64,000 nt of DNA from a virus. Made by a program: the position numbers and the translations under genes. The stretch spans positions 20,199-84,198 of the IMG/VR virus record IMGVR_UViG_3300037875_000559. One strand, written 5' to 3'. Below the pieces are notes generated by a model. That model was not told the DNA's origin, made no database searches, and saw only the letters and a list, made by a program, of their open reading frames with translations. This document shows, in pieces, positions 20,101 through 52,543 of this stretch. How positions within the stretch are numbered: position 1 is the stretch's first letter; every line of letters begins with the position of its first letter.

Positions 20101-21163
20101 ATTTCCTAATACAGGCCAAAAAAGTCAAGCTCTAGGAAACCAGTTGAAAACCGCTCAAGTTCGATTTAAGGATGAGCATATCTCTATTACGGATAAACAC
20201 AAAACTGTTGTTCCTAAAGACAAGAGAGGGATTATTTCTCAAACTATTAAAGGGGTAGTCGCAGGAGTTAAATCCGACCATGCACCTATTTTCATAAATA
20301 TGAAAAATCTTACAGAAGCACAGTATAAAACAGAGGTAAACAAGATTGTTCTAGACCTAACTCTAATCTTTGGGGTAACAAACATAAAAGGTTCAAAAGG
20401 TATTTCGGGGAAATCCAGAGTAGGAGAGACCAATAAGTTTAATGGTTATGTCTCACCCATATTTCCTATTTCTGATGAAAAAGGTTATGAGGTTTTCGGG
20501 GCATATCAATATGGTAGAGGTTTGGACATAATCCCCAATGGGGAGTTTGATTCACTCTTAAAAAGAGATGCTACTTTGCTTCTCACAAATACTGAGTCAG
20601 ACCAACTTCTTGAGGGGGTGAAAGAAGGGAATGGACGATTCGCCTATCTTACCGTAGCAGGAGCTGTTTACAAGAGACTCAATGGAGACGGTGCATCAAT
20701 AGGGCAGGAGTTAAAAGACGTTTATTTCAGACTGACAGGAAAAGAGGCTCCAGGTGAAAAAAAGAACTTAATTAGAGGTATTGCTACTGCCTTAGAAAAA
20801 TCGGATCGTGGAGATCAAATTGTAGTGAACACACCGACAAGGTTGAGAGATCTACGACCTTTATTACAAGAGAAAGAGGCGTGTGATTGTCGTGCAGATA
20901 ACGCAGACATTCAGATTATTTTGGCAGAGGAGTTCCTTCAACCTGTTGAAGGAGAGGAACAAGAGAGTGCAATCGTAAGAGCACAGAAAGCCAAGATAGA
21001 GAGCAAAGTAAAAGATTGGTCAGACAGACAAGCTTCTCTTCAAGGAGAAACAGAGTCTTCTTCTTCAGCTTTACCTACAAACATTGGTAGTAGAATAGAG
21101 GGGGCGATTAAAGACTTTAAGTCTCTGAGTGATTTCCCATTACCTAAGCCACCAAAGGATTAA
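17189..21163 (+). CDS. Baseplate hub protein (gp27/late-control-D-like) with long insertions
   Basis: PVFHGVVTSVSYSFSGG, YEFYQDVDGSLVFKPPFYN, LRPEMRPGYPVYI..IDCFYYVTAISHSF are hub-type motifs. Confidence 0.7.
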   Translation: MSVDKRPYAGNWSPDILNYKRKYTTWTPDAIVLFNGDTKLPGCNECKNKIDFQAFITSVNCSGGTDSGSSSADISLAIPSHYGDSIFKDGEFLFQTGVEVNIYYRGFFEVSGLRPEGETVSENIGGEQVEFDLNKVEMRPYYPVFHGVVTSVSYSFSGGFYSASLSCANILHFWNNQKISTSAAYLAAKPSASRGSVRFNGHVYTNMTPHQIIYDLYRDSSGSADGVGWTFSRKSNMTGKTQLEGRSESLYSLSLLYWNSRFAQGAYSLRMYGASGAVYTGLQTTYLGNKIATSKKLQKLSTSAKKSNAAQEFQTEYAIKLSERDEKLRVLRQPDGDYLPALPGSKTGVSVADQKSFITDISAMGSFELFDTQYDTKLGIASQVADKAGYEFYQDVDGSLVFKPPFYNLDTSSSRVYRIENEDILDISFENQEPEYTYAVCKGGLFRNTAGLGMEGTWGVKSTYVDYRLVAKYGWKALEFDTTFFNNKTAAYYAAVVELEKSNVNVNGCSVTIPLRPEMRPGYPVYIPYIDCFYYVTAISHSFSFGSDCTTSLTLTARRKKFHAPATSSKNGIESVDLGNPALPPKRLIFKDQRGHYNTIGFPNVVMALDPTKVNPNHSFFRFDFHEGLVSNNSKLRRAFKNALILQAYEMKILTLSSSASADPNDDGFFNGPWTLSIEGENGGAETIKLGREVRRVPIYKKNQAGKKVKSGRSKTVGVDIKGTSALRGLAQARDKKISDAMKNRNKADFGEVDKEAREAYYKARNDLKGGDNFTVIDLIDLVQDSNPSGGQPDSDNSASTANILKLLDDKKSSFNPNVPGYYRYYSSSHPKPEHQAPLDMVVDPETNKLTSLDPQLLVDGVEGFVIKDKKTTPALPDEVVVQKETIKRGFKTKTKYSKAEPEIVPTKDILHLSFQYHGAYKKKGIYTDAIKVKRSPKSIIRDIRKAVTSGVNRAFKGKKSILSSALVLSVFPNTGQKSQALGNQLKTAQVRFKDEHISITDKHKTVVPKDKRGIISQTIKGVVAGVKSDHAPIFINMKNLTEAQYKTEVNKIVLDLTLIFGVTNIKGSKGISGKSRVGETNKFNGYVSPIFPISDEKGYEVFGAYQYGRGLDIIPNGEFDSLLKRDATLLLTNTESDQLLEGVKEGNGRFAYLTVAGAVYKRLNGDGASIGQELKDVYFRLTGKEAPGEKKNLIRGIATALEKSDRGDQIVVNTPTRLRDLRPLLQEKEACDCRADNADIQIILAEEFLQPVEGEEQESAIVRAQKAKIESKVKDWSDRQASLQGETESSSSALPTNIGSRIEGAIKDFKSLSDFPLPKPPKD

Positions 21164-33099: not shown

Positions 33100-35835
33100 T
33101 CACAGCAAAGTGTTTATATTTCTTCCTTCAAAAAAGACCTGTGTCTTTTTATCCTTGTTTTCATTTAACCACAAAGCTAGTGCTTCTGCTTCTTTTTTTG
33201 TCAGCTCTTTGATTTCGTATCTCTCTGTAGATTCAGAAATAGTGGTTTTTTCAGTAGCTTCCGTTGTCACTATTTCTTCTTTTTCACTTTCTTTAAATAT
33301 AGAATAAAGCTCATCTACTTCATTTTGTGTGGTTTGTCTCTCTTCAGCAGAGTACTTGTAATCTGTATTATGACTATCACATTCTTTACATATAGCTTCA
33401 GAAATAGTGGTTTTGATTTTACCTGTCTCGCCACAATCTAAGCACTTAAATCCTTTAAGTATTTTCTCACCTGCGGTTCGCTCTTTGATGTCTTTTACAT
33501 CGTAAGGTACATCCCAACGCTTACCTAGTTCCACATCTACTAGAAGAGGCACAGCCCAATTTTGTGAAGCTATCGCTTTATTTCTAGCCATGATCTTAGA
33601 AATTATTACGATGGCTTCTTCTAGTATAGAAGAATGTATTTCAAACACGATCTCGTCATGTACTGTAAGAATCATGTGGAGTTTGTCGAACCAATTCTTC
33701 TGCTTAACTGCTTTGTAGATCAAGCTCATAGCAAGTTTGGTTATGTCTGCGGATGTTCCTTGAATCGGGCCATTTACCGCTTTTCTCTCGTCTTTAGATT
33801 TCCTTCTAAAATCTTCAGATTTAATCTCAGGTAAAGGTTGTACTCTACCAAAAGCAGTTCTGACGTAGCCTTGTTTTCTCCCTAGTTTGTGTTGATGACT
33901 CCACCAACCTGTGAGAGTCTTATAAGTAGATGTAAACTTTCGGAACTTTTCTTCTCCCTCTTCGGCAGTACAACCTTCAATGGATCTTTGTACTGCTTTA
34001 CCAGTACCTCCGTAAGAAAGTGCAAAGTTACAACGCTTACCATGCCCTCTCAAGGCTTTCCAACGAGGGTCTTTCTTAGCTTGCTCTCCGTAGAAAGCAA
34101 CTGCTGTGATTGTGTGTAGATCCCCAATCTTGTCAGATCCACACTTTGGACAAAAAGGGGGTGTCTCGATGGGTAAATTGTTTTCTACTATTTCTTGGGG
34201 TAGCTCATATCCACACTCAGAACATTGGTAAAATGCTTTGATCCATTTAGGTTCATTGGAGAGGTTTGTTACAAGTCTTAACTCCACTCCTGCATAGTCT
34301 ATGGCTACAAGCCAATTTTCTTTATTTCTCACATCAACACAGCTTCGCATTTGGTTGACTATGCGAGGCTTATTTGAGTCATATGAAGACGGGATTCCTT
34401 GAAAGGGTACACGACACCCTCCGTCTTTGGTCTTTTGTGGGTCTTTTGTAGTCTTACAGCTAAAGCGACCTGTGTCAGCAGAAAACTGCTTAAACGAAGG
34501 TTTGAGCGTACCGTCTCTCCCTACGTCTTCTAAGAATGGTATGAGATACTGATTTAAGGCTCTACTGATATTTCTTAGTCTTTTCATTTTAGCCATAAAG
34601 GGGAACTCTTTATAGGACTTCTCGATCACGTCATCGAGAACATCAGCCCCTGTTTTAACCTGCCCCGACTTTTCAGATAATTGTAAGTTGGGGATATTAA
34701 GCTCACGAAATAGCAAACCTAACTGTTGTGGGGACATAATGTCATATACGAGAGGGAACTCGATATTTTCAGTACCCTCTCTTCCCACATAATTCACTGT
34801 TTTTTGGGTTGTTTGTTTGGGGTCGGGGTATAAGCGTTTTGCTTCTTTACGAGCTTCGTCTAAGATTATCTTATAAAACAAACCGCTCTCAATCTTCTCG
34901 GTATTGAAATGGTTCTCGCCTTTCAACTCGCCTTTCATAAGTCTAAGAAAGGAGGGGGTGATGTCTCTTTTGAGTATATCTTTAGCACCACGATATACTT
35001 CTAGTAACGAATCCCACCATTCTTGGTGTCCCTCTAAAATAAACTCTTTTGTTTTTACAGGATCTACATGGACACGACAACGGTGCATCCAACGCACTGA
35101 AACAGCACACGATTTCTCTAAGTTATACATGGAGTCCGAATGCTCAGGGAGTTCAACATATTTCTTTCTCTGTATGTTGAATACTCTTAGCGTACATAGT
35201 GGGTCTGCTCCTGCATATAAAACACTTGGTCGCCATGAGGGGTCTAGTGTGGAGTAGTCTTTAACCTTTGTTTCGGGCAACAGTTCCTTAAGCTCGATCA
35301 TTTCCATCCCACAAAGATTTTTAGAAAGAGCTTTGAGTCCACGACCTCCTTTTTCTCGTGGGTTGAGAAGATAAGTCAGAATAAGAGTGTCTTCCCATTT
35401 TCTCCCGCTGTTAAATCTTTCTCTTCCTAAGTTGAAGAATCCATTATAGTCGAGAAACTCTAAGTCAAAGTTAGCGTTGTGGAATACAGGGTTGGCTTCA
35501 ACTTCAGTTGAGAATAAGCGAGCGAACTCCATCCCTAAGACAGACCAAGGAAGATTATGTTCAGAGCCTTGTTTATGTCCTACAGGGAAATAATAGGCTT
35601 TGTCTTCTGTAGGAGCGATACCGATCCCTACAATAGAGTCTATGGTTCTCCCCCCATAGACTCTGCTGTCTAGTCCTGTAGTCTCTATGTCACACCCATA
35701 ATAATCTGAAGCAATACACTCATCTATTGCTTGAGAGATGTTTTCTTTTGTTCCAAGTATTAGCTCTACGTCTGCCATCCAGTCTTTCGGCTTAATGTCG
35801 GGTCGTCTTATTTCTTCTAAAAAATCAGAAAACAT
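33100..35835 (-). CDS. polA: DNA polymerase family A (3'-5' exonuclease plus polymerase) with two Zn-ribbon insertions
   Basis: Exo motifs DIETTGL, HNANFD, YAGAD; TGRFS; motif A DYAGVELR; motif B RGHGKRCNFALSYG; NGPIQGTSAD; motif C TVHDEIV. Confidence 0.95.
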   Translation of the reverse strand: MFSDFLEEIRRPDIKPKDWMADVELILGTKENISQAIDECIASDYYGCDIETTGLDSRVYGGRTIDSIVGIGIAPTEDKAYYFPVGHKQGSEHNLPWSVLGMEFARLFSTEVEANPVFHNANFDLEFLDYNGFFNLGRERFNSGRKWEDTLILTYLLNPREKGGRGLKALSKNLCGMEMIELKELLPETKVKDYSTLDPSWRPSVLYAGADPLCTLRVFNIQRKKYVELPEHSDSMYNLEKSCAVSVRWMHRCRVHVDPVKTKEFILEGHQEWWDSLLEVYRGAKDILKRDITPSFLRLMKGELKGENHFNTEKIESGLFYKIILDEARKEAKRLYPDPKQTTQKTVNYVGREGTENIEFPLVYDIMSPQQLGLLFRELNIPNLQLSEKSGQVKTGADVLDDVIEKSYKEFPFMAKMKRLRNISRALNQYLIPFLEDVGRDGTLKPSFKQFSADTGRFSCKTTKDPQKTKDGGCRVPFQGIPSSYDSNKPRIVNQMRSCVDVRNKENWLVAIDYAGVELRLVTNLSNEPKWIKAFYQCSECGYELPQEIVENNLPIETPPFCPKCGSDKIGDLHTITAVAFYGEQAKKDPRWKALRGHGKRCNFALSYGGTGKAVQRSIEGCTAEEGEEKFRKFTSTYKTLTGWWSHQHKLGRKQGYVRTAFGRVQPLPEIKSEDFRRKSKDERKAVNGPIQGTSADITKLAMSLIYKAVKQKNWFDKLHMILTVHDEIVFEIHSSILEEAIVIISKIMARNKAIASQNWAVPLLVDVELGKRWDVPYDVKDIKERTAGEKILKGFKCLDCGETGKIKTTISEAICKECDSHNTDYKYSAEERQTTQNEVDELYSIFKESEKEEIVTTEATEKTTISESTERYEIKELTKKEAEALALWLNENKDKKTQVFFEGRNINTLL

Positions 35836-37177: not shown

Positions 37178-38533
37178 ATGCCTAAGTACAATTTAAATTT
37201 AGTACAACAAAGAGAGCAAGCCCGTCATGTTACTCAAGCTCTAAGTGCATATACTCGTTTAGCTAGAGAAGTTGTGAGTATGGGTGCTTCAGCGAAAGCA
37301 GACTCTAATCCAAAAAGAAGATTTACACAGCTTGCTAGATCCTCTTCAAAGGTGTCTGCTTTTTTAGATGCTTTTATAGGGCAACCTACAGACTATTCTG
37401 TGGCATATAGTTTTCGTGAGAAATGTATATATGCTCTTAGAGATCAGCTCTTAGGTTTAAAAACACAGGCTGAAGCCGAAGAAATAATTACTAAGAATGC
37501 AGAGAAGTCCTACATACAAATGTCTGTCTCTTCTGCTCAGAAGAACTTGAGAGGTCTTTTACCACCTGAAATAAAGGCGTTCTTACCTGAGAACATTGTG
37601 ATTGAGACTGACGATGACGGGTCTATTACAAGTATGACGGATGTTTTTGGTAATGAGAAAGACGACCTTCAAACTAAAGTCAATTTAGTTCGTAAAATTG
37701 TGACTGATTACAATAAGATTGTGAAACAGGTGAAGAAAGATCTAGCTTCAAAGAATGAGCGTACTAAGTTCAAGGCAATAGTGACTTCTATTCTTATGGA
37801 AACAGGAATCCGACCTGGACGAGAAGGAAATGCGTCTAAAGTAGCAGGGGTGCTAATAGAGACATTCGGGGCTGTAACTTTAGCTCCCGAACACATTACT
37901 TTTGTAAAAAGTAACCTTGCTGAGTTGAAGTTCGTGGGGAAGGCAGGGACTGTGAATGTTGCGTCTCTTTCAGATAATGCTGTGATTAGAGAACTCAAAA
38001 ACTACGCATTAAAAGCTTTAAAAGGTAAATTGAAGCGTGTTTTTGTAGATAGAAATGGTATTTCACTATCTCATGTAGAGATAAACTACTATTTCCAAGA
38101 ATACTTTGGGTCTATCCGACCTTCTGACTTGAGAAAATATAAAGCTACAGAGCAGATGTTTGAAGCATTGAAAGAAGAGCAACAGAAGTTACAGGCGAAT
38201 ATCTTAAAATTCGTAGATGAAGAGGCTGAAGACTTAAAAGAGCGAGTTCTGTCCGAAATAGTGAACACTTTGAATCTTGCAGTCGAGCGAGCGAAATCGT
38301 CTCTGAGTCATTTATCAGGAGCAGATACCGTTGGGTATTATATTAATCCCGATGTCGTCTTGTCTTTTCTCTCACAAGGATTTGTTGACGCAGACTTGAA
38401 GAGTGCGATCATTAAGAATGACCGTACTCTTTCTTTTGATGTGGATGTTTTTGTACAGCATGCACTTTCTAAGAGAGGTTCTTCTTCTCACAATCTGCTT
38501 TCTATTTTCACAGAAATCGAAAATATGTTTTAA
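37178..38533 (+). CDS. DNA topoisomerase IB
   Basis: Catalytic residues in order: TGIRPG (R), TFGAVTL...H, FVGKAG (K), DLRKYKAT (R), LSH...YYINP (H, Y). Confidence 0.85.
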   Translation: MPKYNLNLVQQREQARHVTQALSAYTRLAREVVSMGASAKADSNPKRRFTQLARSSSKVSAFLDAFIGQPTDYSVAYSFREKCIYALRDQLLGLKTQAEAEEIITKNAEKSYIQMSVSSAQKNLRGLLPPEIKAFLPENIVIETDDDGSITSMTDVFGNEKDDLQTKVNLVRKIVTDYNKIVKQVKKDLASKNERTKFKAIVTSILMETGIRPGREGNASKVAGVLIETFGAVTLAPEHITFVKSNLAELKFVGKAGTVNVASLSDNAVIRELKNYALKALKGKLKRVFVDRNGISLSHVEINYYFQEYFGSIRPSDLRKYKATEQMFEALKEEQQKLQANILKFVDEEAEDLKERVLSEIVNTLNLAVERAKSSLSHLSGADTVGYYINPDVVLSFLSQGFVDADLKSAIIKNDRTLSFDVDVFVQHALSKRGSSSHNLLSIFTEIENMF

Positions 38534-40922: not shown

Positions 40923-41441
40923 ATGAAGTCTGTAGAGTCTTACACTTATGATGGAGTGTTACAGTATGAAGAGTACTCTAGGGGTCTAGATGTTGGTGTT
41001 ACACTATACGCTAATGATAGTGAAATAGGCTACATTCGGGGGCAGAAACTCAATTATAATAACTTTGAGAGCTTACAAAAAGCTAAGACTTGCTACAAGG
41101 ATGTTATCCATCTTGCAGGTCTGGGTGGGAAATCTGTGTGCGATACGGTAAAAGGTACTTCTTGCCTTTTACCTAGAGTTTTTATGATTACAGATGTAGA
41201 ATTAGAGAGTTATGACGACCAAGGAGTGAAGCTTAGAGGTCTTGGTCTTGGTAAGATTCTCTATGAGGTTATTTTTACAGAGTTTTTTGAGGAGAATGGG
41301 GATTTCATTGCAGTTCCAATGAAATGTATTTTCGGAAGAGATAATACTTCTCCTGACGCACAAAGAGTGTGGGACTCTCTTGCTAGAAATCTGGAATCTT
41401 CTTCGGATCTAGTTCTTGTAGATAGGGCTTTGCACTTTTAG
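40923..41441 (+). CDS. GNAT-like acetyltransferase (paralog 3)
   Basis: LRGLGLGKILY; FIAVP.KC...TSPDAQRVWDSLAR. Confidence 0.7.
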   Translation: MKSVESYTYDGVLQYEEYSRGLDVGVTLYANDSEIGYIRGQKLNYNNFESLQKAKTCYKDVIHLAGLGGKSVCDTVKGTSCLLPRVFMITDVELESYDDQGVKLRGLGLGKILYEVIFTEFFEENGDFIAVPMKCIFGRDNTSPDAQRVWDSLARNLESSSDLVLVDRALHF

Positions 41442-41782
41442 TCTTTCTCCCACCAATCGTCAAAACTGCCAAAAGGGATAAGGTCGTATATTTCTACAGG
41501 TATGCTACCAACACAATCATAGCTGAACCACTCACCACTCCCTCTCCACCTTTTAAGTGTCTCATGAAGTTCCTTTTCTCTCCACCCTAATCCTTCCAAA
41601 GATATAATTATTTTCAGAGTGTTAGGGTTACCTGTTTGTAAGTTCTTCAACCTTTTCTGAGGGTGCTTAGACCTGCCTATCTTTATTTCTCCTGTCTTTG
41701 ATGATTGTATGAAATAAAGACAGTCGCCTTTTCTTTTCAGTTTGCTTTTTTTGTAACTAACTATTAGATCATCGTAGTTCAT
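41438..41782 (-). CDS. GIY-YIG-related T5orf172/MUG113-type protein
   Basis: LYFIQ...IKIGRS..PQKRLKNLQTGNP...EKELH...GEWF. Confidence 0.85.
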   Translation of the reverse strand: MNYDDLIVSYKKSKLKRKGDCLYFIQSSKTGEIKIGRSKHPQKRLKNLQTGNPNTLKIIISLEGLGWREKELHETLKRWRGSGEWFSYDCVGSIPVEIYDLIPFGSFDDWWEKD

Positions 41783-41784
41783 TC

Positions 41785-42936
41785 TTATACTCCAAAGAAG
41801 TTGTCTTGTTTTTTGGAACGGTCTTCTTGTCCTTTTAAAAGTCTAGTCCCATCTCCAATATATTCGTGAGAATAGCAGAGTCGATCAGCATGGGCTTCAT
41901 AGTCAAAGCTTGTGTAAGCACCACGCTTTTTGGAGTTATTAGAACCCATTCCTTGATAACTGTTCTTTCTACTCACTTTATTCATGCTTGTTGGCTTCCA
42001 TATTTCAGAGTTATTTCTATGTTCCCCTAGCTTTGGGTGAGCTGTTTTAGAGAAATAACGGCAACCCCTATCATAAAACATCTTTGCTACTGCATTTGAG
42101 AGCTTAGATCCTAGTCCCATCCCTTGAAAATCTGGTAAGATCACAGTCCTATGCTCTCTCCAAGCATTTCTCAAATCTCTGCTAGGGAAAGGGATAGCCG
42201 ATCCAAACCCACAAATCGTGTCATGCTCATTAACAAGCAACCAACAGTGAGCCGACTTATTTATTTCAGAGCTTAAATAGTGATGGTCGCAGAAGACTGA
42301 CCACGCTTCGGTCGAGCAAGGTAGGACTCTAAAATCTGAAGAGAGCCTTTCCGACCTCCCTTCTACGAGCCGTCTCGTTAACGTGTTAGCCACCCAATCA
42401 GGCTCTAACCAATTAATAACATCTTCGTGACAGGTGGCAATGACTACATTTCTATAGCCATAGTGGTCTATTACGTTTCTTACACCTACAGAAATAGAGT
42501 GAGCTAAGTCTCTATTACACACAGATGTAAACTCATCTATCACACAGCCGTCTTTCAGACTTATGGCTATCTCCGCTCTGTGTTTTTCTCCTGTAGAGAG
42601 GACATGGTAAGGTCTGCAAAGAGAGGGTATGGAAGATAATCCTATTTTCATAAGTAGATTGGGTTCTACTTGTGAAGCTATAGCTAAGTTCCCCTTCCAA
42701 ACTATTTCTTTCACCCCTCCCATTTCTTTAAGGAGAGTTGATTTACCGCTTCCACTAGGGCCGAAAATAACTCCAAGTGAGAAATCTTGAGGTACTTTAA
42801 AAGTAGGTACTGTGAAAGAGCTTTCTCCATTAAACCTATAGTCTGAAACTTCGGCTACTCTCTGAATGGTAGGTTCTAGGTCTACTTTTGAGGTGAGGGT
42901 TTGCCCTCCTATTTTTCTATAATTAAATAAGTCCAA
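41785..42936 (-). CDS. ABC-type ATPase fused to GNAT acyltransferase
   Basis: Walker A GPSGSGKST, signature LSTGEKHR, Walker B IDEFTS, ATCH loop; C-term RTVILPDFQGMGLG; no TM partner. Confidence 0.85.
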   Translation of the reverse strand: MDLFNYRKIGGQTLTSKVDLEPTIQRVAEVSDYRFNGESSFTVPTFKVPQDFSLGVIFGPSGSGKSTLLKEMGGVKEIVWKGNLAIASQVEPNLLMKIGLSSIPSLCRPYHVLSTGEKHRAEIAISLKDGCVIDEFTSVCNRDLAHSISVGVRNVIDHYGYRNVVIATCHEDVINWLEPDWVANTLTRRLVEGRSERLSSDFRVLPCSTEAWSVFCDHHYLSSEINKSAHCWLLVNEHDTICGFGSAIPFPSRDLRNAWREHRTVILPDFQGMGLGSKLSNAVAKMFYDRGCRYFSKTAHPKLGEHRNNSEIWKPTSMNKVSRKNSYQGMGSNNSKKRGAYTSFDYEAHADRLCYSHEYIGDGTRLLKGQEDRSKKQDNFFGV

Positions 42937-42938
42937 TT

Positions 42939-44120
42939 TTAAACTCCAAAAAAGTTCTCAGTTTTATATTTAGGTTCAGGAGCTACACCTTTACTCCAAA
43001 TCCAAATTGGTTCGCCAAAAGGCTTTGTTGTTTTTTGCCCCCCACGCTGATAAAGCTCGTAGCCGATTACACCTTCGTAATGAGCGTTAAGATTTTCCAT
43101 ATGTTTGAGCATCGGCTCACATAGGTTTATGTTTTTTTTGTCGTTGATATTAATACACATACGACCACCTTCAGATAAATGCTTCCAACACTTTGTTAGG
43201 GTTGGAAATAGAAAACCCTCTAGCCATTTTTCAGGTGTCGTGTATCGCTTCCAACTTTGTGTCTCTTCTTCACTATATCGTTCAATGTTGAAATAAGGAG
43301 GAGAGGTAAATACAAAATCAAACTCTCTCTCTCCAAGATCAACATCTTCAGCAGGAGAACAGATAAACTCTGTTTTCTTTTTTGTGTTACAGAAATCAGA
43401 AATAGCTTCATATTTCTCATGGAGTTTAGTGTTTGGATCTATGCCTACATAAGAAATAGCGTTTGAAGCATGGAAGCCTACGAGCCGATCTCCCCATCCT
43501 GCTGAGAAATCGAGAACATTCTTAGCATCAAAGAACTCGTATATCCATTTCGCAACTACAGGTCTAAACTGTTGAGCCATATAAGAATGGCTCATGATAG
43601 CTCTCCTTAAAGTCTGGCTGTTTATGCCACCTCTAGTGTAAGGTTCATCGCTTCTAAACCCAAAGAACCCTCTGAGGAAGTTGTTTTTCTTATCTGAGTT
43701 CTCCCACTCATATATAGGAGACTTACTTGAATGATAACCACAGCCCATTCTTATTATTTGTGTGAATTGATCTGAGACTGTCTTGCCTCTGTTATTTCCA
43801 AAGACTAAAAGAGGTTGGTCTGAGAACTTACAATCTAAGCCTTTTACTTGTCGTGGGTTTTCCCACTCTATGTTTTTTATTTCTATTTCTGCCTGTTTTA
43901 GTTTCAGCCAGTCTTTTTTAACTTCGTTTATTTCATATTCTCGTAAAGGGAATGGTAGCTTTTTTATTTCTTCTGATAGGTGTGTTTTTATTTCTTCTTC
44001 AGAGAAATAGTGAAGTAAGTTATCCCATTCTTTTGTAGAAATATAAAGACGATCTTCTATTACGGTAGAGTACTCCGTTATTTCTTTTTTAGGATCTCGT
44101 TCTAAATCAAAGAACATCAA
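42939..44120 (-). CDS. Amino-type DNA methyltransferase (paralog A)
   Basis: VLDFSAGWGDRL (motif I), YVGIDPN, FTSPPYF (motif IV). Confidence 0.85.
   Translation of the reverse strand: MMFFDLERDPKKEITEYSTVIEDRLYISTKEWDNLLHYFSEEEIKTHLSEEIKKLPFPLREYEINEVKKDWLKLKQAEIEIKNIEWENPRQVKGLDCKFSDQPLLVFGNNRGKTVSDQFTQIIRMGCGYHSSKSPIYEWENSDKKNNFLRGFFGFRSDEPYTRGGINSQTLRRAIMSHSYMAQQFRPVVAKWIYEFFDAKNVLDFSAGWGDRLVGFHASNAISYVGIDPNTKLHEKYEAISDFCNTKKKTEFICSPAEDVDLGEREFDFVFTSPPYFNIERYSEEETQSWKRYTTPEKWLEGFLFPTLTKCWKHLSEGGRMCININDKKNINLCEPMLKHMENLNAHYEGVIGYELYQRGGQKTTKPFGEPIWIWSKGVAPEPKYKTENFFGV
43486..43529 (+). repeat. Direct repeat (44 nt identical to 46167-46210) within the duplicated MTase core
   Basis: CGATCTCCCCATCCTGCTGAGAAATCGAGAACATTCTTAGCATC at both loci; also 43387-43427 = 46068-46108. 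Confidence 0.9.
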
Positions 44121-44881
44121 AAGAAATACTCCTGTGTTTGACTCAATCTCTTTTGAGCTATCTTGAAATAATCTTCGTTAATCTCCGACCCTATGTATTT
44201 CCTTTTAGTAAGTTTAGCCATCTTAGCCGTAGTTCCTGAACCTAAGAATGGGTCATAAACTACGTCTTCTTCATAGGAGTAGTAAGAAATAACTTTAGCA
44301 GGGAGTTCTTCTGGGAAGGGAGCTGAATGTTTACTGTGTGTTTCGGGGTTCATTTTCCAAACATTAGTTCGCTCGAAATACTCACTAATCGTTGAACCCT
44401 CTTTCGTGTAGTGTTCTATGTTCTTACTTGCATTAGTTTTGAATACTAATATGTACTCGGTAATGATATTTGGTTTGTAAGTGTAAGGTCTTCTATTAAG
44501 AGAAAAAGAGTGACCTAATCTGTTGAAAACCGCACCTTCGGGTTTGATCCAAATAATGTCTTCCATAAACTTAAACCCTATTTCTTCCATCATAGGTACA
44601 AAGTAATATGGGAGAGGTATGCGACTACTTTCTTTATTTCTGTTCTCTCTAGCTACAATGACAGGGGATATGTTGACTACACAAAATCGGCACTCTTTAA
44701 GAGTTCTCTCGACTTCTGTGAATATATTTCTCATGGTTTCCATGTAGCTTTTCACAGTTTTATATTGAGAGTATTCTCTAGCATTAAAATAAGGTGGGCT
44801 AGTAACTACTAAGTCTATTGAGTTATCTTTCATTCTGCTCATGGTGTCTAAGCAGGACTCATTAAATATCGTATTTTTCAT
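44117..44881 (-). CDS. N4-C/N6-A DNA methyltransferase (beta class)
   Basis: VTSPPY precedes HSAPFP and YDPFLGSGTT. Confidence 0.9.
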   Translation of the reverse strand: MKNTIFNESCLDTMSRMKDNSIDLVVTSPPYFNAREYSQYKTVKSYMETMRNIFTEVERTLKECRFCVVNISPVIVARENRNKESSRIPLPYYFVPMMEEIGFKFMEDIIWIKPEGAVFNRLGHSFSLNRRPYTYKPNIITEYILVFKTNASKNIEHYTKEGSTISEYFERTNVWKMNPETHSKHSAPFPEELPAKVISYYSYEEDVVYDPFLGSGTTAKMAKLTKRKYIGSEINEDYFKIAQKRLSQTQEYFF

Positions 44882-44884
44882 TTC

Positions 44885-45595
44885 TTAAATTCCAAATAAA
44901 TCTACTTGTTTATCAATCTTCATATTTTTAAGCCAAACTGCTTCTTGGAAGTTTTCTGCTTTTAACCCTTTCACTTCTGTAAGAGGTTCAAAAGGTAGCC
45001 ACGAAGCACCCTGTTTCTCACAAACAATTACCTCACCCACACGCTCTTGACACCAATCTGAAAGGTGTTGGAAATCTATGTTCTTTGAACTGTGTCTGTA
45101 ATATATCCCTGCTTCTTCATAAGGGGGGTCAATGAACCAAGTGGCTTCTAGGTTCTCTATTTCTCCATAAGACTTGCACTCGATTTTCCAATGCTTGATC
45201 TTGTAGAGATTAGAAGATATGAGCTTCTTTTTGTAGTTTTGTGTGTTCGGTCTTATTTCTGTTTTCCATTTAGAAGGAGATTTCTTAGGTTGTGTTGCTC
45301 CTCCTGTAATAATAAACCCGACAAGATGAGACGCTTCTTTACAATCCCAAGTAAAGTCATCTACGTTGTCTCCGACTTTCAATTCGGGTAGAGACAAGAT
45401 GTCTTTTGGGCTACATTGTTGTAGCCATTTCCAAATATTTACAATCACTTCATACTTGTCGTATATTTCTATATCTCGATCAAAGTATTTCAGAGCATAT
45501 TGAGCCGTACCTGCGAAGGGTTCAATAATCTTGTCTTTTGTAGGCTTCGGGTATTTCTCTATGATCTTAGATTTTGAACCATAATACCCCCACAT
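44885..45595 (-). CDS. Dam/D12-like adenine DNA methyltransferase
   Basis: YYGSKSK, EPFAG, FIDPPY. Confidence 0.85.
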   Translation of the reverse strand: MWGYYGSKSKIIEKYPKPTKDKIIEPFAGTAQYALKYFDRDIEIYDKYEVIVNIWKWLQQCSPKDILSLPELKVGDNVDDFTWDCKEASHLVGFIITGGATQPKKSPSKWKTEIRPNTQNYKKKLISSNLYKIKHWKIECKSYGEIENLEATWFIDPPYEEAGIYYRHSSKNIDFQHLSDWCQERVGEVIVCEKQGASWLPFEPLTEVKGLKAENFQEAVWLKNMKIDKQVDLFGI

Positions 45596-45598
45596 ACA

Positions 45599-46795
45599 CT
45601 AAACCCCAAAGAAATTGTCAGATTTGTACTTTGGTTCGGGAGCTTCACCTTTACTCCATACCCAAATTGGCTCACAGAACATAAGACTTGAGTCGCCCAT
45701 GTTTTTCCCTGGTCTCGCACCCATCTCATACCCAATTAATCCTTCGTATGTAGCTCCAAGAGACTCCATGTGTTTCAACATCGGCAGACATATTTCTTCT
45801 CTTTCTCCCTTTGTATACGCATCTGCAATGTTCACACAGATACGTCCTCCTTCAGATAAATGACTCCAACACTTCGTTAGGGTTGGAAATAGAAATCCCT
45901 CTAACCATTTTTCCATTTTAGGGTATCGCTTCCAACTCTGTGTCTCTTCTTTAGAGTATCTCTCCAAAGTGAAATAGGGAGGAGAGGTAAATACAAAGTC
46001 AAACTCAAGACCCGTCAAGTCAGCGTCTTCAGCAGGAGAACAGATAAACTCAGCTTTTTTTCCCGTATTACAGAAATCAGAAATAGCTTCATATTTCTCA
46101 TGGAGTTTTGAGTTAGGATCTATACCAACATAGCTTTCAGCATTTGAAGCATGGAAGCCTACAAGTCGATCTCCCCATCCTGCTGAGAAATCGAGAACAT
46201 TCTTAGCATCGAAGAAATTGTAAACCAACTTAGCTGACTGAGGTTTGAACTGTGAAGCAATGTATGATCTCATTGCCAAAGCACTTTTAAGAGCTTTAGG
46301 TGTCACATCTTTGTCAAACATAACGGGGTTGAGTAAGTATTTAATGAACGACTTCTTTCTACTTGTCCATGCAGACCAAGGAGATAAGAATCTCTCATGT
46401 CCTACTTCCATCCTTTCTTCTTGAGTGAAGAAATCTGACACAGGAGAGCCTAACCTCAACCCTTGTGCAACATATAAAGATCTACCTTTATATGTTGTGG
46501 CTATTTCTGAAGAGATACGCTTGCAAGACCAAGAGTCTTCACTCATTTGTGGTTCTCTACTACACAGTAAACTGAATTCGTTTCTTATTTCTTGTGTGTT
46601 GTATTCTCGATATGGAAACTTGATTTTTCCGTCCTCAATTAAATCTCTCATTCTTTGGTGTATTTCTTCTTTTGTGTATGAAGAAATAATGCTTTGCCAC
46701 AATCCTCTCGGTATGAACAAATCACCATTTAAATCGAAAATCTCTTCTTCTTTTAGAAGGTTTGGCTTTTCTATTTCTAAATCATCAAATAACAT
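45599..46795 (-). CDS. Amino-type DNA methyltransferase (paralog B)
   Basis: VLDFSAGWGDRL, FTSPPYF; core nearly identical to 42939-44120. Confidence 0.85.
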   Translation of the reverse strand: MLFDDLEIEKPNLLKEEEIFDLNGDLFIPRGLWQSIISSYTKEEIHQRMRDLIEDGKIKFPYREYNTQEIRNEFSLLCSREPQMSEDSWSCKRISSEIATTYKGRSLYVAQGLRLGSPVSDFFTQEERMEVGHERFLSPWSAWTSRKKSFIKYLLNPVMFDKDVTPKALKSALAMRSYIASQFKPQSAKLVYNFFDAKNVLDFSAGWGDRLVGFHASNAESYVGIDPNSKLHEKYEAISDFCNTGKKAEFICSPAEDADLTGLEFDFVFTSPPYFTLERYSKEETQSWKRYPKMEKWLEGFLFPTLTKCWSHLSEGGRICVNIADAYTKGEREEICLPMLKHMESLGATYEGLIGYEMGARPGKNMGDSSLMFCEPIWVWSKGEAPEPKYKSDNFFGV

Positions 46796-48310
46796 TTACA
46801 TATCCAATACATCAGCGAGAGGGTCTTTTGTCTGTGTTCCTTTTTTGCCTTTATATGTAGGCAAGGAGTGCATGGGCATATTGAGAATACGACCTGAAGG
46901 CCAAGCAGGTTTTGCTTCAAACGCTTCAAAACCAGCCCCTTGTCTAACTTTCAGACATTGGTACTTTATTGTACCTTTCTCTCTCATCTCATCCCCATAC
47001 CAAGCAGAAATAACAACATCGCTAGAACGCTCTGCTTCATTAGCATAACTCAAGTGTGTGAGGTTATATGACCCTCCGTTCTTTTCAGCCGCTTTAAAGC
47101 CTTCACGAGAAATCTGAAAGAGACAGACAAGAGGAATACCCTCTCCTCTGTTGAAAGAAAGAGCGAGTTTTTTCAAATCTCGTATGACTTCGTTTAGTCT
47201 TTCGGTGGTGGAAGCTACCCATCTTCTTGAGGACACAAGCAGAGCGTGGTCTACAACTAGCACCTTTGCAGGTTTTCTTTGATGTAAGACCTCTGCTTTA
47301 GTCTTAATGTCTTCCACAGTGATGTCCATAGAGTCGGGGTCGGCTATTTCAAACTGAATTGAGCCATACTCTCCACTCTCTACACCCTCTCTTAAATCTT
47401 TTACGACATCTTTAAGTAGGTCGATCTCGTCTTCTGTTAATTTACCATTCTTAATAGAGTCTGGGTCAATACCTACATCGGGATTCTGTTGTTTTTGGAT
47501 TCCTAGTGCCATTCTTTTTGAACGGAACTTTTTGTGCATAGAATGAAAGGCATATATTGTTTCTCTACATTGTTCATAGTGCATTTCTAGTTGGAAATAA
47601 ATGCTGTTCAGACTTTGATATACAGCCATGTTGTATATCCAGTTCATCGTTGTTTTGGATTTCATGTGTGCAGTAAATCCTGCTACCATATAAAGTTCTT
47701 TCTTACGAAACCCTCCGATAGCGTCATCTATATACTGAAGACCTGTTTTTGGTAAGACTCCTACATCGGTATCTACTGTTTTTTGGTAGTGTTCCCAAAA
47801 AGCGTCTTCGTCATTGAGAACATCGCCACCGATCTTCGCTCCAAAAGTAGGTGTGAGTAAATCAGAGAGTTGCTTTGACAAATATTTTGTCGCATCTCTC
47901 ACACCTTTCAAAGTAAATTTCTTTCTACCTTCTTTTATTTCTAAACCTTGACGAGCAATCGTTTTTGTAGAAGAAAGAGCATCCGCTAAAGCCATGTGAC
48001 GAGCGTCTTCCACATTCTTTTCTATTTCAAGAATAAAGTCGCCTCGATAAATCACAGACATACTTGAGATTTGACGGATACGGTCTGCTTCATCAAAATC
48101 ATTATTTGAATCAAAATATTGGATGACGACATCTTGTTCGGGCAGATGTCCATGTGTTGAAGCAAAAGTCTTAATAAACTCAAAAATCTTTATATCTGTC
48201 GGCAAATCGAACAGAAATATACTTTCTCTGAGAGAAATATAGTTTTGATACATCAAGTCATCTTTGTCGCCCACTCTAGTGTCTGGGAGAATAGATCTGA
48301 GTATTTTCAA
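46796..48310 (-). CDS. dnaB: DnaB-like replicative helicase
   Basis: TGLQYIDDAIGGFRKKELYMVAG, FQLEM, VVDHALL, QISREG, AERSSDVV, KVRQG; variant Walker A GFTAHMKS. Confidence 0.85.
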   Translation of the reverse strand: MKILRSILPDTRVGDKDDLMYQNYISLRESIFLFDLPTDIKIFEFIKTFASTHGHLPEQDVVIQYFDSNNDFDEADRIRQISSMSVIYRGDFILEIEKNVEDARHMALADALSSTKTIARQGLEIKEGRKKFTLKGVRDATKYLSKQLSDLLTPTFGAKIGGDVLNDEDAFWEHYQKTVDTDVGVLPKTGLQYIDDAIGGFRKKELYMVAGFTAHMKSKTTMNWIYNMAVYQSLNSIYFQLEMHYEQCRETIYAFHSMHKKFRSKRMALGIQKQQNPDVGIDPDSIKNGKLTEDEIDLLKDVVKDLREGVESGEYGSIQFEIADPDSMDITVEDIKTKAEVLHQRKPAKVLVVDHALLVSSRRWVASTTERLNEVIRDLKKLALSFNRGEGIPLVCLFQISREGFKAAEKNGGSYNLTHLSYANEAERSSDVVISAWYGDEMREKGTIKYQCLKVRQGAGFEAFEAKPAWPSGRILNMPMHSLPTYKGKKGTQTKDPLADVLDM

Positions 48311-51700: not shown

Positions 51701-52543
51701 ATGAAGATACTTATTGGTGGCGACATTTCTTTCGGCAGAACCCATAAAGGGGGGTTTATTTCTTATTCTGTTGAGGGTTGTTTAGACTCTTTAGCTCGTA
51801 TTCCAAGAGATTACAGCATAGTTAATTTAGAGTCACCCATATGTAGCTCACCTCTTACGGGAAAGAAAGCCGAGAACTATGACGGTGTTTTATTGTATGC
51901 AGAACCACAAGCAGTTCGCCACTTAGTTAAGGCAGGTATAGACTATGTTTCTCTAGGTAATAATCACGCTTTAGATCATGGTCTTAAGGGTATTTCTGAA
52001 ACAACGTATTACTTGGAAAGAGAAGGGGTCTCTTATTCAGGTGTTGGTACTGATTATTATTATCCACATATAGATGAAAAATTAAACTTAGCGATCTTCA
52101 GTATTGATTTAGTCGAGTCTTCTTACAAAACACGAGATTTGGTGTTTTGCCGAGAAGATTTACCTCTCTTGTTAAAGGGTGTCACCGACACTAGAAGAAT
52201 ATATCCCGACTATATTATCTGTGTGTGTATTCATTGGGGGTTAGAGTACAAGATCCAACCTGAGTCCTATCAAATAAAGTTAGGTAGATTCTTAGTCGAT
52301 TTAGGTGCAGATCTCATTGTTGGTTCACACCCTCATGTTCTCCAACCGATGGAGATATATAAAGGTAAGCCTATTTTTTATAGTCTTGGGAATCTTTATT
52401 TTACACACCATAACAAGAAGTACGACAACATGAAAGAGACACATCAAGCTCTTATTTCTGTAGTTGATTTTCAAGGTCGAGAAGTGAGAGATATTGAGGA
52501 TTATGAGGGGTATATTCAGAGTGGTGAAAAGGTGCTCTTTTAG
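51701..52543 (+). CDS. CapA/PGA_cap-family metallophosphoesterase
   Basis: GGDI, NLESP, LGNNHALDHG, HWGLEY, GADLIVGSHPHVLQ, YSLGN. Confidence 0.9.
   Translation: MKILIGGDISFGRTHKGGFISYSVEGCLDSLARIPRDYSIVNLESPICSSPLTGKKAENYDGVLLYAEPQAVRHLVKAGIDYVSLGNNHALDHGLKGISETTYYLEREGVSYSGVGTDYYYPHIDEKLNLAIFSIDLVESSYKTRDLVFCREDLPLLLKGVTDTRRIYPDYIICVCIHWGLEYKIQPESYQIKLGRFLVDLGADLIVGSHPHVLQPMEIYKGKPIFYSLGNLYFTHHNKKYDNMKETHQALISVVDFQGREVRDIEDYEGYIQSGEKVLF

Follow-up and report, generated by a model that had tools for sequence, protein, structure and literature searches.

The window analysed here comprises 64,000 nucleotides (nt), positions 20199–84198 of one 84,198-bp IMG/VR virus record (IMGVR_UViG_3300037875_000559; the whole record is called G000 below). 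It carries five adjacent, tightly packed minus-strand genes (41785–46795) for predicted DNA-modifying enzymes, and all five products end in a short hydrophobic or aromatic C-terminal tail. The tails have been added, in particular lineages, to enzymes of different families, and they are selected as peptides. We propose with moderate confidence that they are clamp-docking short linear motifs, which would couple multi-enzyme DNA modification to replication. Our confidence is held at this level because binding is a prediction, the NFFGV form of the tail is non-canonical, the phage's own clamp is deduced from its relatives, and the co-occurrence of clamp and tails is confounded by clade. Physical binding, the identity of the clamp used and an anti-restriction benefit are what we infer from the observations set out below.

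An earlier note, made from the sequence alone, had quoted the five C-termini, and all of them read exactly as given there. The cassette consists of the following genes (MTase, methyltransferase; aa, amino acids):

41785..42936, minus strand: ABC-ATPase/GNAT fusion (ABC-GNAT), 383 aa, ends KKQDNFFGV; tail QDNFFGV, codons 41788–41808
42939..44120, minus strand: MTase A, a paralog of MTase B, 393 aa, ends YKTENFFGV; tail TENFFGV, codons 42942–42962; PF01555, 28.7 bits
44117..44881, minus strand: beta-class N6/N4 DNA methyltransferase, 254 aa, ends QTQEYFF; tail QEYFF, codons 44120–44134
44885..45595, minus strand: Dam-like (D12-class) adenine methyltransferase, 236 aa, ends KQVDLFGI; tail QVDLFGI, codons 44888–44908
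45599..46795, minus strand: MTase B, 398 aa, ends YKSDNFFGV; 14-aa extension with tail SDNFFGV, codons 45602–45622; PF01555, 32.5 bits

C-terminal tails of the modification enzymes

The enzyme families were assigned with Pfam. ABC-GNAT scores 35.8 bits against the GNAT model PF00583 (cut-off 20.7) and 22.6 bits against ABC_tran, which lies below the cut-off of 25 and covers the P-loop region only. Its order of an N-terminal ABC-type P-loop ATPase and a C-terminal GNAT domain is that of the enzymes described by Iyer et al. The beta-class enzyme matches PF01555 (N6_N4_Mtase) over residues 22–244 with 142.9 bits (1.8e-41), and MTase A and MTase B, like the beta-class enzyme, exceed the gathering cut-off of this model (26.7 bits). 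The Dam-like enzyme matches PF02086 (MethyltransfD12) with 28.7 bits (cut-off 22), in its N-terminal 68 residues only. The earlier note had spoken of four unrelated families, which is slightly overstated: PF01555 is matched by MTase A/B as well as by the beta-class enzyme, even if BLAST does not group them in one cluster.

The tails extend 10–22 aa past the point at which tail-less homologs stop. The core of ABC-GNAT ends in ..CYSHEYIG and is followed by a 22-aa hydrophilic linker and then QDNFFGV, while that of MTase A ends in ..EPIWIWSKG and continues into a 14-aa extension closing in TENFFGV. Behind the core end ..EAVWLKN of the Dam-like enzyme lies a 12-aa tail closing in QVDLFGI. The beta-class enzyme carries a 10-aa tail after its domain, and its orthologs end in QTQEYLF or QTQEYFF.

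Whether homologs from other phages lack the tail had been raised earlier as a check, and such homologs exist: across 74 related viral loci, MTase A/B homologs from phages with a PolB-type polymerase stop at the core, with ..EPVWIWKK or ..EPVWIWKKL. In the clade of the window the core is followed by APEPKWxQDN[FY]FGV, the family consensus tail being QDN[FY]FGV, and in a third clade by SPLNKFF[VMIK]. Among cluster members of at least 330 aa, 41/124 are tailed and 83/124 tail-less. Homolog tables were compiled with 120 matches listed for MTase A/B, 120 listed of 2880 at E ≤ 1e-3 for ABC-GNAT, and 150 representatives listed for the Dam-like enzyme, which has 1536 relatives at E ≤ 1e-3. Among the matches listed, many ABC-GNAT homologs stop at or within a few residues of ..CYSHEYIG, close relatives continue with a hydrophilic linker and then NFFGV, YFFGV, SLFEV or TPFF, and distant homologs terminate in QLTLF, QPSLF, QLNLF, QETLF or QGSLF. 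The listed Dam-like homologs have the core end ..EVVWTN; many stop there, and others add QLNLF, TQTSLF, QERLF, QLKLFKDI or QPNLFGVI. The idea that the tails are inherited parts of the folds was rejected in view of the tail-less homologs, which stop at the core.

To quantify the placement of the motif, Qxx[LMF][FL] was counted in the last 12 aa of the listed matches and in internal windows of the same proteins. For MTase A/B it occurs in 41/120 C-termini versus 6/3747 internal windows, for ABC-GNAT in 28/120 versus 8/3488, and for the Dam-like family in 23/150 versus 9/2997. The clamp family itself, which served as a control, has the motif in the last 12 aa of 0/83 proteins.

The earlier note had also asked whether similar tails are equally common elsewhere in the record. 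In a crude set of 102 open reading frames (ORFs) of the whole 84-kb record, a C-terminal [FL]FG[VI] is confined to the cassette, where all four instances lie (4/102). Looser aromatic endings (..ELF, ..DYF, ..NMF, ..VLF) are present on a few other ORFs of the record. A broad census of 1640 ORFs from 75 sources found tails on 40/128 MTase A/B, 6/6 ABC-GNAT, 21/24 PolB and 5/7 PolA members, and most other families had none. In the related genome G003, 12/265 ORFs carry a loose aromatic tail, including PolA, three MTases plus a beta-class fragment and a Toprim protein. In G001 (100% complete) the count is 17/435 and includes all six MTase A/B paralogs. The count also takes in an ORF ending in ..SIFDLFD, whose match to the beta-class methylase of the window is weak and spans just 39 aa; its equivalent in G003 is probably an N6_N4 methylase. 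The remaining tailed G001 ORFs are mostly unannotated.

Hydrophobic C-termini can act as protease tags. The tails might by analogy be signals for degradation, localisation or packaging, such as a hydrophobic degron that limits enzyme lifetime or a tag that targets the capsid. We consider this highly improbable, since the tailed proteins are for the most part enzymes of DNA transactions (MTases, ABC-GNAT, Mom, polymerases) and not structural or cargo proteins, and since the tails resemble clamp motifs and polymerase tails.

The N-termini were examined as well. Several of them had been described in the earlier note as acidic-aromatic, alongside the tails. The quoted sequences are present (MDLFN and MMFFDLE, both from TTG starts, MLFDDLE, and MFSDFLEE in PolA), but a link to the tails is not supported, as such N-termini are a family trait also seen in 24 tail-less MTase A/B homologs. 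These 24 homologs begin MYLEYFDKF.., and the N-terminal motifs are not supported as a second docking site. The same applies to ABC-GNAT, for which many homologs with an M(x)DLF start, among the matches listed, have no C-terminal tail.

MTase A/B genes were also seen in paralog arrays. G001 has six copies, five of them within 12 kb (G001:C1:268017–294480; L119–L120), and about ten different cluster representatives among the matches listed lie on contigs of one size, 86,648 bp. Such arrays suggest diversifying target specificities.

Several further proteins with aromatic endings came to light. A large protein at G001:C1:50555–52096 (minus strand) and L084:4640–6685 (minus strand) has the conserved end ..LWESAPDVSK[FY]FG in G001 and G003; a Pfam scan of the G003 copy gave no match, and the protein is an unexplained candidate member of the tailed set. 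A Toprim-domain protein, encoded outside the window at G000:C1:5457–6137 and at L082:18209–18886 (minus strand), has a conserved basic-aromatic C-terminus in four relatives (..RRMFT, ..RRYFS, ..RRMFL, ..KKMFY), which marks either a further client of the same proposed hub or a part of the fold. Within the window, a 451-aa protein with a eukaryotic-type topoisomerase I catalytic core (37178–38533, plus strand; PF01028, 1.4e-14) ends in ..IENMF. A close relative in L001 ends in ..LSKMF, and the G003 ortholog has no such ending. Finally, a PGA_cap-family protein in the replication region (51701–52543, plus strand; PF09587, 2e-48) ends in ..EKVLF; an ortholog was not found in G003.

Codons and Shine–Dalgarno sequences at the tail junctions

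A different account of the tails places the constraint in the DNA. They could be by-products of Shine–Dalgarno (SD) sequences and translational coupling, or of a recombination junction used for cassette shuffling in tandem arrays. The junctions of the window lend some colour to this. GGAG or GGGG lies 7–8 nt ahead of the next start at three of them (ABC-GNAT, MTase A and MTase B), the Dam-like junction has GGAA, and AGGAG occurs within the beta-class tail about 13 nt before an ATG located 2 nt inside the listed TTG start of MTase A. At 41785–41795, 42939–42949 and 45599–45609, the Gly-Val codons of the tail (GGAGTN or GGGGTT) double as the SD sequence of the next gene.

The two levels of constraint were separated in 23 distinct FFGV-type tail DNAs, counting as a close downstream gene any start that opens at least 30 codons within −8 to +20 nt. 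Gly is encoded by GGA in 16/23 tails. A close downstream start follows 16/23, and an SD core is present in 13/16 of these versus 3/7 of the tails without one, as expected if the DNA itself were constrained. The peptide is kept, however, through synonymous variation at several positions: Asn is encoded by AAC in 12 and AAT in 6 tails, Phe at −4 by TTT in 8 and TTC in 9, Asp by GAT in 12 and GAC in 7, and Val by four codons. Moreover, 7/23 tails have no close downstream gene, and four of these seven lack an SD core. An SD sequence would explain at most Gly-Val and not Q-D-N-F-F, and unrelated families in varied genomic settings have QxxLF and FF tails as well.

Because the codons vary synonymously and the tail persists without a downstream gene, selection acts on the peptide. 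The Gly-Val codons double as SD sequences where genes are tightly packed, and the peptide is kept where no such need exists. On the same two grounds, constraint on the SD sequence or the junction was rejected as the main cause and retained as a secondary, dual-coding effect; as the primary origin of the tails, a DNA-level constraint is largely refuted and strikes us as quite improbable. A conserved 29-nt spacer was observed after the stop codons of three tailed MTase A/B genes from different records (L006, L007, L009), and it may be a promoter or a terminator.

A divergent clamp and the replication proteins of the lineage

At a completeness of about 27% (CheckV), the source record represents part of a huge phage whose genome would measure some 300 kb. 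Among named relatives, LR745208.1 (485 kb, 43% identity) is the closest in PolA, and when the cassette was compared as nucleotide sequence with 50,697 phage records, a single 67-nt match was all that came up. The relative G003 (275 kb, 88% complete) has 75/102 ORFs in common with the genome of the window, in mostly conserved order.

A phage-encoded clamp, which the earlier note had suggested looking for, was found with a DnaN fold in four relatives of the same lineage that are at least 73% complete (G001–G004). The Pfam DnaN models (PF00712, PF02768) had detected no clamp in G000 or five relatives, and the divergent protein was later found through PHROGs and its fold. Pfam models for gp45 (PF02916, PF09116) gave no match in G000–G003, a negative that is uninformative because the models also missed the PolB control phages G006 and G007. 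Of 118 clamp-sized ORFs of G003 scanned against PHROGs, one matched a 'DNA polymerase processivity factor' (phrog_947, 1.7e-14; L087:14864–16123, plus strand, 419 aa). Orthologs are present in G001 and G002; the protein measures 401–421 aa in the relatives, with phrog_947 matches of 1.7e-14 to 6.5e-22. G003 also encodes a clamp loader (phrog_5846, 3e-52; Pfam DNA_pol3_delta2, 5e-24, plus a DnaX lid domain; L092), and a DnaX-type loader is present in G001–G003, the three clamp-bearing relatives searched.

The G003 clamp protein has no match in Pfam, PF00712 and PF02768 included, and no sequence match in the PDB. Its AlphaFold2 model, built from a 43-sequence alignment, has a predicted local distance difference test score of 92.8 and a predicted template modelling (TM) score of 0.87. 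The top Foldseek matches in the PDB are all bacterial DnaN (E 4e-21, TM 0.7–0.8, 12–16% identity). As modelled, the phrog_947 protein is a very divergent DnaN with the three-domain beta-clamp fold.

A profile of this clamp was searched against 39 records. It matched G001, G002, G003 and G004, that is 4/4 records at least 73% complete with aromatic-tailed MTase A/B, and 0/6 records at least 76% complete with tail-less homologs. The five closest relatives that are fragments (23–46% complete) did not yield the protein. This co-occurrence of clamp and tails is consistent with the clamp hypothesis.

The cassette lies directly after the replicative helicase gene, as had been described earlier. The polymerase and the two immediate neighbours of the cassette are:

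33100..35835, minus strand: PolA-type DNA polymerase, 911 aa, Pol A domain to residue 775, ends ..NINTLL
41438..41782, minus strand: T5orf172-domain protein (PF10544, 1e-7), directly downstream of the cassette, tail-less
46796..48310, minus strand: DnaB-type replicative helicase (DnaB_C, 5e-19), directly upstream of the cassette, tail-less

PolA has a C-terminal extension of about 136 aa (33103–33510) with a weak, below-threshold match resembling a zinc ribbon. Its orthologs end in ..DITALFS, ..DITILF, ..DVSALFI or ..SINALLD. Pol III alpha (PF07733) was not found in G000–G004, and PolA is, from its endings, a plausible candidate for a clamp client of the lineage. A polymerase of the PolA type, a DnaX-type loader and a very divergent DnaN-fold clamp occur together in the lineage, and it would be unusual for a PolA replicase to work with a beta-clamp.

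In the mechanism that we propose, the tails would most likely fit into the pocket with which a sliding clamp binds peptides. As partner, the phage's own divergent DnaN-type beta-clamp, which would be loaded by the phage DnaX-type loader, is the primary candidate, and the host beta-clamp may serve too. Through clamps on replicating phage DNA, both paralogous MTases, the beta-class and Dam-like enzymes and ABC-GNAT, which is predicted to acylate bases, would be brought to nascent DNA, where they could write several protective modifications during or just after replication, ahead of host nucleases, in a scheme analogous to DNMT1 on PCNA.

The available text of a 2024 beta-clamp review gives the canonical motif as QL[S/D]LF, generalised as Q-phi-x-[L/M]-[F/L] or the hexamer Q-phi-x-[L/M]-x-[F/L], in which Gln is important and not essential (PMC11139829). 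QVDLF of the Dam-like enzyme fits this consensus. QDNFF of ABC-GNAT and QEYFF of the beta-class enzyme have the Gln and the terminal Phe, without an aliphatic residue at position 2 and without Leu or Met at position 4.

Several observations weigh against clamp docking. NFFGV is non-canonical, with Asp or Glu instead of an aliphatic residue at position 2, Phe instead of Leu or Met at position 4 and an additional GV, and MTase A (TENFF) and MTase B (SDNFF) lack the Gln that the review, in the text available, calls important (PMC11139829). The PolA tail, [DN]I[TN]xL[FL], is unlike QDNFFGV, so that a rule by which enzymes share the tail of their polymerase fails in this clade. The 84-kb record from which the window comes yielded no clamp or loader gene because it is a fragment of only about 27%, and their presence is deduced from relatives. 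The co-occurrence is phylogenetically confounded: the four positives belong to a single clade, and the same pattern would be seen for any protein specific to that clade. A few non-DNA proteins carry aromatic endings too, and the SD core in the Gly-Val codons at 13/16 tight junctions points to some real constraint at the DNA level. The earlier claim that the enzymes are tethered to a clamp or another replisome hub thus stands in part, supported by appended tails that resemble clamp motifs and by a clamp in relatives, and weakened by the non-canonical NFFGV and by the lack of a clamp gene in the record itself.

Some of these points would also suit a different shared partner. The tails might dock on a replisome protein such as PolA, the helicase or a single-stranded DNA-binding protein (SSB), on a scaffold of a modification complex, or on each other. 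In keeping with this, NFFGV departs from the beta-clamp consensus and is unlike the PolA tail found in its clade, and aromatic C-terminal tails serve other hubs, as in the small subunits of ribonucleotide reductase (RNR) and in gp32-type SSBs. In the loci fetched here, RNR small subunits end in ..DDLF or ..GDIF and gp32-type SSBs in ..FDDLFNN. However, homologs elsewhere carry the canonical QxxLF or the polymerase-type tail of their own phage, which argues for a clamp and not for a partner private to the lineage, and no alternative hub candidate was identified. We regard such a partner as rather unlikely, and docking on a clamp as the reading to be preferred.

Relation to known clamp clients and modification systems

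Phages of other lineages offer a comparison. In loci with a Pfam-confirmed PolB-type polymerase, the polymerase ends in EKFFSF, EKFFTF or KKFFEF, two N6_N4 MTases end in VQNFFSF and INQFFE, and ABC-GNAT ends in NKFFQF. The modification enzymes of PolB phages, the cultured Aeromonas phage PX29 among them, end like the clamp-binding tail of their own polymerase. PX29 has annotated gp45 and gp44/62; its ABC-GNAT homolog, PX29p085, is 40% identical to the window protein and ends in SGLDFMFGI, its gp43 ends in SLTDLFGDW and its gp55 in GLSFLEDDDDADE. The ABC-GNAT locus of Tenacibaculum phage pT24 is 36% identical to the window protein. At this locus (L100, LC168164.1 32066–33238) two coding sequences are annotated, BPT24_038 and BPT24_037, and the homolog has no aromatic tail. 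A Mom-family enzyme (PF25680, 1e-52; L015:1593–2381, plus strand) ends in ..NLNKFFK and lies directly after an MTase A/B homolog ending in ..SPLNKFFM.

Taken more broadly, it is possible, and we suggest it tentatively, that tailed phages of several unrelated lineages tether MTases of different classes, Mom-family enzymes and ABC-GNAT to the sliding clamp through polymerase-like C-terminal peptides tuned to the type of clamp (Qxx[LF]F(GV) for DnaN-type and [LK]xFF or LDFxF for gp45-type clamps). Nascent DNA would then be modified in several ways in step with replication; as an anti-restriction strategy this would be modular and widespread, and among viruses of prokaryotes it would correspond to DNMT1–PCNA, with the clamp of the present lineage also serving PolA via its C-terminal extension.

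Clamp 'tool-belts' are textbook knowledge for polymerases and repair proteins, as is DNMT1–PCNA for animals. A literature search covering main texts brought up no paper in which a DNA methyltransferase of a bacterium or phage is a clamp client, and in the available text of the 2024 beta-clamp review the words 'methyltransferase' and 'methylase' occur 0 times (PMC11139829). Particular to the present case are the NFFGV/DLFGI variant of the tail, the inclusion of ABC-GNAT, and the setting in a huge phage of the PolA type, with a DnaN-fold clamp that is very divergent. If the tails bind a clamp, this would explain how a few hundred kilobases can be modified quickly at many motifs and so escape restriction. 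It would also allow modification enzymes coupled to replication to be recognised in metagenomes by a simple rule of sequence, make the uncharacterised ABC-GNAT a fork-associated DNA modifier, imply an unusual replisome of PolA and a divergent beta-clamp, and turn the tails into handles for pull-downs and for engineering clamp-targeted enzymes.

One close parallel is with clients of the bacterial beta-clamp, which according to the available text of the review include Pol II, Pol III alpha, Pol IV, Pol V, Hda and MutS/MutL (PMC11139829). These clients and the window enzymes both have a terminal short linear motif, and in three of the five window tails (QVDLF, QDNFF, QEYFF) Gln stands at the position expected ahead of the hydrophobic pair, opening the five-residue motif. 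Distant homologs of the window enzymes carry textbook QLTLF, QLNLF and QPSLF, and the lineage has a DnaN-fold clamp. The present clients differ in being phage DNA methyltransferases and ABC-GNAT, and the clamp in being phage-encoded and 12–16% identical to solved clamps. NFFGV deviates at positions 2 and 4 and has two extra residues, and binding is here a prediction.

In the T4/RB69 system, the C-terminal tail of RB69 gp43 binds gp45 (PMC3012046), and gp33 and gp55 have a C-terminal LDFL motif for gp45 (PMC9690074), as stated in the available parts of these papers. As in the window enzymes, a hydrophobic peptide forms the extreme C-terminus, and it is common to the polymerase gp43 and the further clamp clients gp33 and gp55; the PX29 endings ..TDLFGDW (gp43) and ..LDFMFGI (ABC-GNAT) resemble ..VDLFGI and ..DNFFGV of the window. 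Whereas T4 and RB69 combine PolB with gp45, the lineage of the window combines PolA with a three-domain DnaN-type clamp.

ABC-ATPase-GNAT proteins of jumbo phages, with pT24 as an example, have been predicted to acylate a DNA base (Iyer et al. 2021, PMC7824862). The window protein has the same pair of domains and the same setting among DNA methylases. It differs in its clamp-type tail, which is not mentioned in the available text of that paper (PMC7824862) and is absent from the pT24 copy.

Finally, Dnmt1 has a PCNA-binding motif, as noted in the part of the source available (PMC9690074), and the logic would be the same in that a sliding clamp brings a DNA methyltransferase to newly replicated DNA. 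The clamp, the motif and the phage setting are different, the tag is found on several enzyme families including a non-methyl modifier, and the presumed purpose is self-protection and not epigenetic maintenance.

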